From contig CAWHNS010000021.1 in NCBI GenBank assembly GCA_963830715.1, positions 211,005 to 275,004 on the forward strand: 64,000 bases of DNA, in the 5' to 3' direction. The DNA is from an uncultured delta proteobacterium (GTDB lineage Bacteria; Desulfobacterota; Binatia; Binatales; Binataceae). Position 1 is the stretch's first letter; each line of letters starts with the position of its first letter. The notes beneath the pieces are model-generated. The model searched no databases and was not told the DNA's origin. It saw nothing but the letters and a program-made list of their open reading frames with translations. Shown here piece by piece: positions 10,998-24,460 of this stretch. Position numbers and translations under genes: made by a program.

Positions 10998-12179
10998 TCA
11001 GACCTGGTATGGCTTGACCGAATCGGCCGCCGCGCCGATTATCGGCCCATGGCCGCCGCGGCTGTGGACCATGTGGGCCAGATCGTAACGCGCGAGCATC
11101 CGATAGAGCGTGGAACGCGAGATTTTGAGGACCTCCGCGGCGCGGCGGCGATTGCCACCGGTCTCCTCCAGCGAGCGCAGCAGGGTCTGCTTGATTACCT
11201 CGTCCAGCGTCAGGGGCCGCAGCGGGTCGAGTTGCCGGTCGGTCTCCTCGTGCGGCGTTTCGCACGGCAGCCCGCGCTCGCTGATTGAGCGGACTTCGAC
11301 CGGCGCAATCGCGGTTGCGTCCGCCGACGGACGGCTCGCGGCCTGTACGACTTTGGTCAGATAATCCGGCAGGTGACACACGTCTATCCGGTCGCGATCC
11401 GCGAGCATCACCGCGCTCTCGATCGCATTTGCGAATTCGCGCACGTTGCCGGGCCATTCGTAGGCCAGCAGCACGTTGAGCGCGCGACGCGACAGATATT
11501 TTTTCTGCTTGCCGAGCATCCGGTTGCAATGCTCGATGAAGTGCGCGGCCATCGCGTCGATCGCTTCGCGGCGCCGGCGCAGCGGCGGAATCGTGATCGA
11601 GGTCGCATTGAGGCGATAGTACAAGTCGTCGCGGAACTGGCCCACCTTCGCCATGTCGCGCAAGTCGCGGTTGGTCGCCGCAATCAGCCGCACGTCGACG
11701 TGATAGGTGCGCTGCGAGCCGACCGGCTGCACCTCTTTGGTCTCGACCACGCGCAGGAGCTTGGGCTGCAGCCGGAGCGGCAGCTCGCCGATCTCGTCGA
11801 GGAACAGGGTGCCTCCTGCGGCGGAGCGGAAGTAGCCGGTCGAGTCCTCGCGCGCGTCGGTGAATGCGCCACGCACGTGGCCGAACAGTTGCGACTCCGC
11901 CAGCGTCTCGACCAGGTTGGAGCAGTTGAAGGTCACGAACGGCCCCTTGGGGGCGGAGCCCATGAGATGAAGCCCGCGCGCCACCAGCTCCTTGCCGGTG
12001 CCGGACTCGCCCTGAATCAGCACCGTCGACTTGTAAGGCCCCAGGCGCGCGATGGCGCTCGCCACCTCGCGCATGTGCGCCGACCGCACCACCATCCCGG
12101 CCACGTAGGCGCAGCCCGAACCGAGCGTGTCGAGATCGATCGACTCCTCGCTCGATCCGTCGCTGCCGTTGGTTTCCAT
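10998..12179 (-). CDS. Sigma-54-dependent transcriptional activator (EBP1), AAA+ plus Fis-type HTH, no sensor domain
   Basis: Walker A GESGTGKE, sigma-54 contact loop GAFTDA (variant of GAFTGA), FLDEIGELP, WPGNVRE, C-terminal HTH (AAEVLKISRSTLYRML). Only about 27 aa precede the AAA+ core. Confidence 0.9.
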   Translation of the reverse strand: METNGSDGSSEESIDLDTLGSGCAYVAGMVVRSAHMREVASAIARLGPYKSTVLIQGESGTGKELVARGLHLMGSAPKGPFVTFNCSNLVETLAESQLFGHVRGAFTDAREDSTGYFRSAAGGTLFLDEIGELPLRLQPKLLRVVETKEVQPVGSQRTYHVDVRLIAATNRDLRDMAKVGQFRDDLYYRLNATSITIPPLRRRREAIDAMAAHFIEHCNRMLGKQKKYLSRRALNVLLAYEWPGNVREFANAIESAVMLADRDRIDVCHLPDYLTKVVQAASRPSADATAIAPVEVRSISERGLPCETPHEETDRQLDPLRPLTLDEVIKQTLLRSLEETGGNRRRAAEVLKISRSTLYRMLARYDLAHMVHSRGGHGPIIGAAADSVKPYQV

Positions 12180-12431
12180 CTTGCTATGCCACCTTTAGCG
12201 GTCCGATTATCCGCGCCCCCCCGCCCCTGCCCCGCTCCTGGAGCCCCGGCGCGCTTCTACGCGTCTCGCAGCAAGACACAGGCCATTGCAGGGGCGAGAC
12301 GGCACGCGCGGTGTAGCGCAACCGAAGCCGGAATAGTCCAAACCGCCCCCTCCAGCTGCGACAATTGCCTGTCGCGGATTCCCGCCGGATGACACACTTT
12401 AGTAGCGAAATAATACATTCAGGCGGATAAC

Positions 12432-12887
12432 CTACTCCTCCTGCGCCTCCAGCAAATCGGCAAGCACCCGCGCGGCGTGATCGCGCGGGTCGACCTGATC
12501 GTAAACGCGCGCGATACGGCCGTCGGCGCCGATCAGGAAGCTGACCCGATCCGCCCGCGCGGCTTTCGGCCCCTCGCAGGCGCCGTACGCGAGCGCCACG
12601 GCGCGATCGGTATCGCTGAGCAGCCGAAAAGAAAAGTTGAATTTGCGCGCGAAGGCGGCGTTGGCCGCCGGCTGGTCAAAACTCACGCCGGCCACCACGA
12701 TGCCGGCGGCGTCGAAGTATTCCTGATGGTCGCGGAAGCCACGCCCCTCCAGCGAGCATCCCGGCGTATCCGCCTCGGGAAAAAACCACAGCAGCACGCT
12801 TTGCCCGCGCATCGCGGCGAGTGCGAAGCTGCCGCCGTCGTGAGCCGGCAGCACGAACTCCGGGGCCTTGTCACCCGCCTTCAGCAT
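12432..12887 (-). CDS. bcp: Peroxiredoxin, Bcp type
   Basis: FFPEADTPGCSLEG active-site motif. 151 aa. Confidence 0.85.
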   Translation of the reverse strand: MLKAGDKAPEFVLPAHDGGSFALAAMRGQSVLLWFFPEADTPGCSLEGRGFRDHQEYFDAAGIVVAGVSFDQPAANAAFARKFNFSFRLLSDTDRAVALAYGACEGPKAARADRVSFLIGADGRIARVYDQVDPRDHAARVLADLLEAQEE

Positions 12888-13021
12888 CTCCCTCCCGATC
12901 CCGCGGCCGGCCTGATATCGGCTTCCAGGCCGCAGGCGCGCAGCGCCAGTCCGGGCCGCGTCCGCCCGGAGCGGCGGCCGGCACTTGCTTCGATATACAC
13001 ATTGACATAAAAGATTACAAG

Positions 13022-22579: not shown

Positions 22580-22646
22580 CCCACCCGGCCGCCCTTGAGG
22601 AAAGCGACTCTTCACCCCCGGCTTGCGCCCCCTTTTTTGGGCGCGC

Positions 22647-22916
22647 TCAGCCGGGCCGGCCGTTCCTCAGCGGGATAGCCCAGTCCCATACGTAGCGCCG
22701 GCGAGTATCGTCCGACTCGACACGGCTTACGATATTATCTCCGCAGCCGCCACAGAAGAAATAGGTGCGCTGGCCATTGCCCAGCGTCAGCACCATGGCC
22801 TTCTCGCCGATTGGGTTGTTGGTGAAGCCGCGCCCGCATACCGCGCAGCATCCCTGACTTAGAACCTCGACCCGGTTGACTACCAAATACTCGCTGACTT
22901 CAGCGCTTGCGTCCAT
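22647..22916 (-). CDS. Unrecognised CxxC...CxxC (Zn-ribbon-like) protein, paralog 1 (89 aa)
   Basis: ATG at 22916 preceded by GGAGAGGA. Motifs EYLVV, CAVCG, GEKAMV, CGGCG, NIVSRV and YVWDW. Confidence 0.6.
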   Translation of the reverse strand: MDASAEVSEYLVVNRVEVLSQGCCAVCGRGFTNNPIGEKAMVLTLGNGQRTYFFCGGCGDNIVSRVESDDTRRRYVWDWAIPLRNGRPG

Positions 22917-23314
22917 TGGTGTCCTCTCCGTTGCAATTCTCCAAAACATCTCCAACCGGTTCCGCCCGCGCCACAACCGCTCTCGAGACGCGATGTTGCA
23001 GGTTCAGCCGCCTTCAAGCCTCATTGCGCGTGACCGCCGCTCGCTGGCGAGGAGCTCGGGAGTAAGCGGTCATTCGCGGCGGATCGCCACTCGCCGCAGG
23101 CTCGGCCAGCTTCTCCAGATTAACACGCGCCGAGGCTAGCAGACTTCGCCGCTCGGCGACAAACAGGAGCGAAATAGGAACGTCACGGCAAAGCCGGAGT
23201 CGCGGCGGCACGATGGAAATCGGCGCGAATGCCATAGGCGGGACGACCCGGCCTGGGGGCCGCGAAGCCGTGCGCGCCGGGCCGCGCGCAGCCCCGTCGC
23301 CCCCAAAGGGCGGC

Positions 23315-24460
23315 TCAACGCGCGCTGCGGTTGGAACGGACTTCGGCCAGACCGAAGCGGCTGATCATCCTATACACAGTGTAGCGCGAAACTCCTAAAA
23401 GTCGCGCCGCACGGATGCAGTTGCCCTCGGACCTGTCCAGCGCGCGCACCAGCGCTTCCTTCGCCGCCTCGTTGACAGCATGATCCAGCGATAGTGGCGC
23501 CGACTCTCCCTCATCTCCTGCCGGCCGCTGCGGCGCCCCCCCGCGGATAGCGGGGCCGCGCAGATCGCTTGCGCCGGGTGCTGCCTTGACGAGGTAGGCG
23601 GGCAAATTGCCGATGTCAATCCGGTCGCTGTCCGTGAGCAGCATCGCGCTTTCCACCACGTGCGAGAGCTCGCGCACGTTGCCCGGCCAGTCGTAGGCCG
23701 CAAGCGCCTTCATCGCCCCTCGCGAGACGTATTTCACCCGCTTGCTGAGCATCTGGTCGTAGTGCTCGACGTAGTGCGCGGCGAGCGCCTCCACGTCGCT
23801 GCCGCGTTCCCGCAGCGGCGGAATCAGCACCACGCTGGTATTGAGCCGGTAGTAGAGATCGTCGCGGAACTGGCCGGCCTTGACCATTGCGCGCAGATCG
23901 CAGTTGCTCGCCGCGATCAGCCGGATATCCACCAGATGGCTCTGCGAAGAGCCGACCGGCTGCACTTCGCGGGTCTCGACCACTCTGAGCAGCTTGGCCT
24001 GGAGCCGCAGCGGCAGTTCCCCGATCTCGTCGAGGAAAAGCGTGCCGCCGGCGGCGGAGCGGAAGTAGCCGAGCGAGGTCTCCCTCGCGTCGGTGAAGGC
24101 GCCGCGCACGTGGCCAAAGAGCTGGGACTCGGCCAGCGTATCCACCAGGTTCGAGCAGTTGAACGTGACAAACGGGCCTTTGGGCGCGGGCCCCAGCAGA
24201 TGGAGCGCGCGGGCCACCAACTCCTTGCCGGTGCCCGATTCGCCCTGGATGAGCACCGTCGACTTGTGCGGCCCGAGCCGCCCGACGGTCCTGAACAGAT
24301 CGCGCATCGCCTCGCACCGTCCGATCATGGCGCCCAGCCGGGCCGTTCCGGCGCCCAGTCCGGCAACCTCCAGCCATTCGCCACCGCCCTCGGCCTGTTC
24401 TTCCAGCGCGAACAGCGCGTCGTCAGCCGTCCGATCCAGGGAAATTTGCTCTAGGCCCAT
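23315..24460 (-). CDS. Sigma-54-dependent transcriptional activator (EBP2), AAA+ plus Fis-type HTH, no sensor domain
   Basis: GESGTGKE, GAFTDA, FLDEIGELP, WPGNVRE, HTH AARLLGVSRYTVYRMI. About 43 aa precede the AAA+ core. Very similar to EBP1 throughout the AAA+ domain. Confidence 0.9.
   Translation of the reverse strand: MGLEQISLDRTADDALFALEEQAEGGGEWLEVAGLGAGTARLGAMIGRCEAMRDLFRTVGRLGPHKSTVLIQGESGTGKELVARALHLLGPAPKGPFVTFNCSNLVDTLAESQLFGHVRGAFTDARETSLGYFRSAAGGTLFLDEIGELPLRLQAKLLRVVETREVQPVGSSQSHLVDIRLIAASNCDLRAMVKAGQFRDDLYYRLNTSVVLIPPLRERGSDVEALAAHYVEHYDQMLSKRVKYVSRGAMKALAAYDWPGNVRELSHVVESAMLLTDSDRIDIGNLPAYLVKAAPGASDLRGPAIRGGAPQRPAGDEGESAPLSLDHAVNEAAKEALVRALDRSEGNCIRAARLLGVSRYTVYRMISRFGLAEVRSNRSAR

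Follow-up and report, generated by a model that had tools for sequence, protein, structure and literature searches.

In Desulfovibrio vulgaris Hildenborough, Flp-type pilin genes at the head of a cpa/tad operon are under sigma-54 control, which was shown for DVU2114 by DNA affinity purification-chip (DAP-chip) analysis (Rajeev et al. 2011, PMC3333781). The regulation of the pilin/tad genes by DVU2114 has also been treated by Kazakov et al. 2015 (PMC4641369). DVU2114 is a two-component response regulator: it has a receiver domain, its loop reads GAFTGA, and it binds upstream. We analyzed a Tad/Flp pilus locus in a stretch of 64,000 nucleotides (the window) of contig CAWHNS010000021.1 from an uncultured delta proteobacterium (assembly GCA_963830715.1), in which two paralogous sigma-54 activators, or enhancer-binding proteins (EBP1 and EBP2), flank the pilus genes. 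On the minus strand the order is EBP2, zn1, zn2, flp-2, flp-1, cpaB, cpaC, cpaE/tadZ, cpaF/tadA, tadB, and tadC; after tadC come a convergent plus-strand gene, a peroxiredoxin gene, and EBP1. In our reading, to which we give a probability of roughly 65%, a single sigma-54 promoter before flp-2 would drive both the pilin and the assembly genes under an activator of the EBP1/EBP2 clade, most likely EBP1, with control exerted through the abundance of that activator.

Activators of other appendage and stress systems provide further points of comparison. PspF of Escherichia coli has no regulatory domain, and its activity is set by a partner protein or by its abundance. HrpR and HrpS of Pseudomonas syringae are adjacent and co-transcribed, form a hetero-hexamer, and are restrained by HrpV. 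Sigma-54 activators can also be arranged in cascades, as from FleQ to FleR and from FlrA to FlrC in flagellar systems and in the development of Myxococcus. To our knowledge, the only described sigma-54-controlled Tad/Flp case uses a response regulator. DVU2106 of D. vulgaris carries a GAFTDA loop and has an assigned regulon (PMC4641369, citing Fievet et al. 2011); it is an activator of orange-protein operons and is listed as a single-component regulator for cell-division genes (PMC4641369). GAFTDA is among the loop variants expected to keep activator function, and an activator that has no N-terminal domain points to a partner protein or a cascade (PMC4641369).

The element that carries our reading is the -24/-12 site before flp-2. 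A 16-column sigma-54 position weight matrix (PWM), whose scores are rough, was run over both strands of the whole 4.19-Mb assembly (8.4 million positions). The bare GG-N10-GC pattern is uninformative, because it occurs 9.2 times per kb per strand genome-wide. The flp-2 site scores 13.5, and a score equal or better is found at only 74 of the 8.4 million positions. Among the 77 sites scoring at least 13.4, 51 fall in the non-coding 24% of the genome as delimited by a crude gene caller, an enrichment of about 6-fold, and therefore most of these high-scoring intergenic sites are expected to be real. The flp-2 promoter recurs in the four sister genomes, unchanged or with 1 to 3 of its 16 bases altered, amid otherwise diverged intergenic DNA. 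A search of 40 relatives with CpaB yielded 30 Tad loci, in about 22 of which the first flp gene is preceded, on the coding strand, by a single site with a score of 13 or more; the genome-wide density of sites gives a chance expectation of about 0.5. When further loci are included, TGGCA[CT]-N6-TGC is invariant in 24 flp-upstream sites and the spacer is variable, a pattern that is the signature of a -24/-12 promoter. Judged by its rarity and conservation, the predicted flp-2 site is real, and it lies where an earlier sequence-only reading of the window had placed it.

The same reading had proposed a second -24/-12 promoter before flp-1, so that flp-2 and flp-1 would form two independent sigma-54 transcription units, possibly with one activator each. 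The motif is indeed located there: its spacing is GG-N10-GC, its -12 element is a perfect TTGC, and it stands 52 nt ahead of the flp-1 start. The flp-flp spacer is also unusually long in the window (143 nt), and these observations would fit a second unit. However, the site scores 6.3, which is equaled or bettered by 5,920 sites genome-wide (0.7 per kb per strand, i.e., chance level), and about 0.1 site as good is expected in a spacer of such length. It also sits in the loop of a local inverted repeat (21592-21629). Alignment revealed no sigma-54 site before flp-1 in any of the four sister genomes, in which this region is not conserved; two of them have a flp-flp spacer of only about 50 nt, and the other two have long spacers without a sigma-54-like site. 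In related Tad loci the strong site is single and always stands before the first flp gene, with no second strong site before later flp genes in about 30 loci. The background scan thus placed the flp-2 site well above chance and the flp-1 site at chance level, and the latter is probably a chance match. The assignment of one activator to each pilin gene loses its basis because a flp-1 unit is unsupported, and two separate sigma-54-driven units are highly improbable.

Instead, flp-1 is most likely co-transcribed with flp-2. Neither a sigma-70-like promoter nor an intrinsic terminator was found from flp-2 to tadC, and the fold of the flp-2/flp-1 spacer is not significant (z = -1.6). The PWM scan found no sigma-54-like site before cpaB, in agreement with the sequence-only reading, which had seen no match there and had suggested read-through or a different promoter for the assembly genes. 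These genes have no promoter of their own. The simplest reading is that a single sigma-54 promoter serves both pilin genes and that transcription reads through into the assembly genes.

Both candidate activators consist, by Pfam, of Sigma54_activat (PF00158; E-values of 8.6e-63 and 9.2e-62), AAA_lid_14, and HTH_8 (3.6e-09 and 2.1e-07) only, the last being a C-terminal Fis-type helix-turn-helix (HTH). The Walker A motif GESGTGKE is present. Only 29 residues in EBP1 and 44 in EBP2 precede the AAA+ domain, which begins at residues 30 and 45, respectively. A longer N terminus is impossible because stop codons close the frames just upstream, capping them at 398 aa (EBP1) and 393 aa (EBP2). Sequence identity between EBP1 and EBP2 is 57% overall and 70% within the AAA+ core, and the sigma-54-contact loop reads GAFTDA in both, not GAFTGA. 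The earlier description of two closely similar activators with this loop and without receiver (REC), GAF, or PAS input is therefore borne out. The genome encodes about 17 sigma-54 activators, and GAFTDA is read in three of them: EBP1, EBP2, and one on contig C7, which is probably a response regulator, its upstream sequence looking receiver-linker-like.

EBP1- and EBP2-like proteins form a clade apart from two outgroup activators (tree support of 100/99). The loop of the clade is GAFTDA, rarely GAFTHA or GAYTDA, and immediately ahead of the AAA+ domain the clade members have a short N-terminal peptide in common, EW[LI]x[LI]xxL..G. Deep branching within the clade is not resolved by the tree, and the HTH signatures sort the paralogues more clearly. 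The type-1 HTH (GNRRRAA..SRSTLYRML) is found in EBP1 and in every copy found directly downstream of tadC. The type-2 HTH (GNC[IH]RAA..SRYTVYRM, in EBP2 GNCIRAA..SRYTVYRMI) is found in EBP2 and in upstream or divergent paralogues. Each HTH type is kept throughout the family, and EBP1 and EBP2 therefore represent an old duplication with different DNA specificities rather than a recent tandem copy. A contig search with EBP2 returned mostly generic activators, which share the AAA+ patterns, and one close relative, from a metagenome-assembled genome labelled Deltaproteobacteria bacterium.

EBP1 has a predicted sigma-54 promoter of its own, which had been overlooked in the sequence-only reading. This promoter is kept in each of the five genomes of the genus, whatever the location of the EBP1 orthologue, and at least five other genera have sites scoring 12.7 to 15.2 ahead of their type-1 activator genes. 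Upstream of the EBP1 promoter lies the perfect palindrome GCGACA-N6-TGTCGC, which has no second exact copy in the genome; one sister genome has it exactly, and in the other three its arms carry one to a few mismatches. Because a conserved promoter precedes the gene, EBP1 itself is predicted to be sigma-54 dependent, and the combination of this promoter with a unique palindrome would imply autoregulation or a cascade. EBP2 orthologues have no sigma-54 site upstream, with best scores of 2 to 8 (2.3 for EBP2 in the window). Upstream of the EBP1 palindrome there is an AT-rich, partly palindromic block (12401-12418), which reads GTAGTATTATACTAC in the sister genomes and is degenerate in the window; it could serve as a second site for a regulator or as a site of bending.

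Candidate enhancer blocks conserved in the genus lie 40 to 95 nt upstream of the flp-2 promoter and comprise TCATGT..TGGGAC, a GGGAC/TCCC inverted repeat, and GTGACTAACTAATCC (21986-22000). In the window this inverted repeat is a perfect palindrome, CGGGAC-GA-GTCCCG (22006-22019), centered 70 nt upstream of the -24 GG. These enhancer-like motifs hold within the genus, not across genera.

Two hairpins were also observed. A flp leader hairpin in three sister genomes (L051, L052, and L054) shows two compensatory pair changes (ACTGTC/GACAGT versus ATTGCC/GGCAAT); in the window this hairpin is missing through a deletion at 21865-21928. A short, genus-conserved hairpin without a U-tract (GACCGCC..GGCGG, 21270-21300) precedes the cpaB ribosome-binding site and could tune the ratio of pilin to machinery.

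We propose that sigma-54 holoenzyme would sit in a closed complex on the -24/-12 element before flp-2 and await an AAA+ activator. An activator of the clade would bind the candidate blocks upstream and spend ATP on opening the complex, and transcription would then cover flp-2 and flp-1 and read through cpaB to tadC. The cognate activator is most likely EBP1, with its type-1 HTH, because type 1 sits directly behind tadC in many genera, at least seven in number. Because EBP1 has no sensor domain, the control point would be its amount, set by its own sigma-54 promoter. This could take the form either of positive autoregulation of EBP1, acting as a switch, or of a cascade in which EBP2 turns on EBP1.

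The synteny of the two activators differs. The order Tad operon, peroxiredoxin, type-1 activator is widely conserved, and in G000, G003, G007, G012, G016, G018, and G023 a type-1 EBP follows closely on tadC, in many cases with the peroxiredoxin gene between. The EBP2-zn1-zn2 unit is conserved in five genomes. In G002 it stands 5.7 kb away from the Tad locus and in G004 17 kb away, in both cases divergent and with unrelated genes between; it is on other contigs in G001 and G003 and is frame-shifted in G003. In G001, G002, and G004 the unit ends against a convergent HAD-like gene. In the window (22106-24460, compared with three sister genomes, L032-L034), the unit is inverted relative to the HAD-like hydrolase gene (24718-25497), and its place directly upstream of flp-2 therefore results from a local rearrangement, an inversion plus a deletion. 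The 17 kb in G004 include an integrase-like gene. The bracketing by paralogues that the sequence-only reading had described is thus part of a widespread order on the EBP1 side, whereas the adjacency of EBP2 is a local rearrangement. Type-2 copies are nevertheless 0 to 17 kb from Tad loci in five genomes (G000, G002, G004, G007, and G023), and a looser ancestral linkage is plausible.

This arrangement bears on the role of EBP2. EBP2 could be unrelated to the pilus, forming with the Zn-ribbon genes a separate module with other targets that was moved beside flp by rearrangement. We consider this a real possibility, though we lean against it. It would explain why the unit is conserved on its own, standing against the HAD-like gene in three sister genomes and inverted in the window, and why unrelated genes separate it from the Tad locus in sister genomes; in other genera, type-2 copies lie beside sulfotransferase- and glycosyltransferase-like ORFs (open reading frames), as judged by sequence inspection only. 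However, proximity of type-2 copies to Tad loci in five genomes is more frequent than chance would suggest, and no alternative sigma-54 target was found next to the EBP2-zn1-zn2 unit.

The same proximity could be read as a sign of joint action of EBP1 and EBP2 on the flp promoter, in a hetero-hexamer like that of HrpR/HrpS. Both proteins lack a regulatory domain, they are similar in sequence (57% identity) and flank the locus, and one copy of each HTH type is kept in most family genomes. The two genes are nevertheless 11 kb apart, their promoters differ, and they are not co-transcribed. Their recognition helices also differ. In addition, several family genomes have a single clade member, EBP2 is on another contig in two sister genomes, and in one of these (G003) it is frame-shifted though the flp promoter is kept. 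We therefore regard a hetero-hexamer as unlikely and prefer EBP1 as the activator of a single pilin and assembly operon.

Several points weigh against this preferred reading. No enhancer motif that the flp and EBP1 promoters have in common, or that recurs across genera, emerged from searches for half-sites (GCGACA/TGTCGC and GGGAC/GTCCC), dyads, and k-mers, and activators are therefore assigned to promoters by synteny. The EBP1 orthologue lies away from the Tad locus in G001, G002, and G004; these relocated orthologues retain the promoter and palindrome. The genome's many other sigma-54 activators (about 17) could serve either promoter, and the PWM only approximates the Barrios 1999 compilation. 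Finally, cpaF, tadB, and tadC contain frame changes, and if these are real, the pilus machine may be inactive. Frame mapping against the intact genes of sister genome G003 (window 14078-17337) located four of them, in cpaF near 16224 and 16090, in tadB near 15527, and in tadC near 14214. They are likely to be assembly indels rather than decay, because the second Tad locus of the genome shows frame changes too. As a check on these frame changes, an identical CpaE was sought on other assemblies; there was no record.

We infer the assignment of activators to promoters, the choice between autoregulation and a cascade, and any role of the Zn-ribbon proteins. By analogy with PspA or HrpV, the Zn-ribbon proteins are candidate partners that would gate EBP2. 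A family-wide circuit can be envisaged in which a Zn-ribbon-gated type-2 activator (gated via EWLxLxxL) switches on a self-locking type-1 activator, which in turn drives the pilin operon. We regard this circuit as rather improbable; if true, the two activator genes would form a bistable, partner-gated pilus cascade without a sensor domain in any activator.

The features of the locus are listed in Table 1. The gene set was established with Pfam on 20 window ORFs (8.9 to 25.9 kb), which are not an exhaustive ORF set. The Tad/Flp set is complete for pilin (G/xxxxEY motif), CpaB, secretin, TadZ, TadA, TadB, and TadC, with the Flp_Fap scores of the pilins (30.1 and 31.9) slightly below the cut-off of 32.2. 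No dedicated prepilin peptidase (TadV/CpaA) was detected at the locus by Pfam on the scanned ORFs, and the single A24 peptidase found is elsewhere in the genome (C20:422864). An Rfam scan of 10.5 to 25 kb gave no match. An intact rpoN is present on another contig (C9:104984-105457). The sequence-only reading had described two sensor-less sigma-54 activators bracketing a Tad/Flp locus and had pointed to rpoN as the gene to look for; the Pfam gene set and the intact rpoN agree with it.

Table 1. Predicted genes and regulatory elements of the Tad/Flp locus, with positions in the window
Feature	Position	Strand	Evidence or remark
EBP2, sensor-less sigma-54 activator, 381 aa, GAFTDA, type-2 HTH	23315-24460	-	Pfam, translation, HTH typing
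zn1, small Zn-ribbon protein (CxxC...CxxC, YVWDW)	22647-22976	-	Always directly 3' of EBP2 orthologues
zn2, longer zn1 paralogue, end gene of the conserved EBP2-zn1-zn2 unit	22106-22615	-	
Candidate enhancer (upstream activating sequence) region of the flp promoter	21986-22037	-	Five-genome alignment
Sigma-54 -24/-12 promoter of the pilin operon (predicted), TGGCACGAGACCTGCC	21929-21944	-	PWM 13.5; 65 nt before flp-2 ATG
flp-2, Flp pilin, processing motif G/QTMTEYALI	21697-21864	-	Pfam Flp_Fap 31.9 bits (cut-off 32.2)
Proposed flp-1 -24/-12 site of the sequence-only reading, AGGCAGCCCAGTTGCC	21605-21620	-	PWM 6.3; probably a chance match
flp-1, second Flp pilin	21380-21553	-	Pfam, alignment
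cpaB	20379-21269	-	Pfam
cpaC (secretin)	18697-20382	-	Pfam
cpaE/tadZ	17348-18595	-	Pfam
cpaF/tadA	15904-17337	-	Pfam, frame mapping
tadB	15010-15964	-	Pfam, frame mapping
tadC	14013-15008	-	Pfam, frame mapping
Peroxiredoxin (AhpC/TSA), between tadC and type-1 EBP in several genera	12432-12887	-	Pfam, synteny
Perfect palindrome GCGACA-N6-TGTCGC, candidate enhancer	12358-12375	.	Center 82 nt upstream of the EBP1 -24 GG
Sigma-54 -24/-12 promoter of EBP1 (predicted), TGGCCTGTGTCTTGCT	12270-12285	-	PWM 13.96; 91 nt before ATG
EBP1, sensor-less sigma-54 activator, 393 aa, GAFTDA, type-1 HTH	10998-12179	-	Pfam, translation, HTH typing

Other sigma-54-like sites were observed in the genome. The second Tad locus (contig C24:267091-277027, outside the window) has three flp genes and its own sigma-54 site, TGGCACAAGACGTGCT. 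Its upstream repeat is a different one (GTTGCA / GTTGC-N6-GCAAC), common to orthologous loci in many relatives, and the locus ends against a convergent activator-like AAA+ gene without a GAFTGA loop. On contig C6 (213933-214070, outside the window), the sigma-54 site TGGCTTGCTCCTTGCT, with a score of 14.2, stands 14 nt before a CheY-like response-regulator gene. A palindrome, CCGGGAC-N8-GTCCCGG, lies about 90 nt upstream of this site and resembles the GGGAC/GTCCC repeat before flp-2, and the 16-mer of the site recurs identically after a type-2 activator in G010. Within the window, a sigma-54-like site (AGGCAAGAGACTTGCT, score 13.9) was found in non-coding DNA on the plus strand at 52988-53003, with a TGTCGC-N6-nCGACA repeat just downstream.

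Compared with known systems, the locus combines features that occur separately elsewhere. Like HrpR and HrpS, EBP1 and EBP2 are paralogous activators consisting of an AAA+ core and an HTH only and are found at a surface-appendage locus. Unlike hrpR and hrpS, the two genes here are separated by 11 kb and have separate promoters, and their products differ in HTH type. Inspection showed no HrpV-like gene, and no search aimed at HrpV was made. The absence of an N-terminal regulatory domain is shared with PspF. No PspA domain was detected among the 20 ORFs scanned with Pfam (8.9 to 25.9 kb, not an exhaustive set), and in contrast to the PspF/PspA pair, the candidate partners here would be Zn-ribbon proteins, which are unrelated to PspA. 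As in cascades of the FleQ/FleR type, an activator gene lies behind a sigma-54 promoter. However, activators of that type carry sensor or receiver domains, whereas EBP1 has none, and its expression level would be the main input. With DVU2106 the EBPs share the GAFTDA loop, but the architecture and targets of DVU2106 differ.

The GAFTDA loop and sigma-54 control of Flp pilins are both already known, and the locus does not represent a new class of mechanism. It does define, in an uncultured lineage, an uncharacterised clade of activators that have no sensor domain and fall into two conserved DNA-binding types. The activator gene with a sigma-54 promoter of its own suggests that adhesion pili could be switched on and off. 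The closest parallel is the DVU2114 system, which likewise has a sigma-54 promoter before small Flp-type pilin genes heading a cpa/tad operon and an activator encoded nearby. In contrast to DVU2114, the EBPs described here have no REC domain by Pfam, carry GAFTDA, and occur as two paralogues, one with a sigma-54 promoter of its own, making this locus a second, differently wired example of predicted sigma-54 control of Tad/Flp pili.

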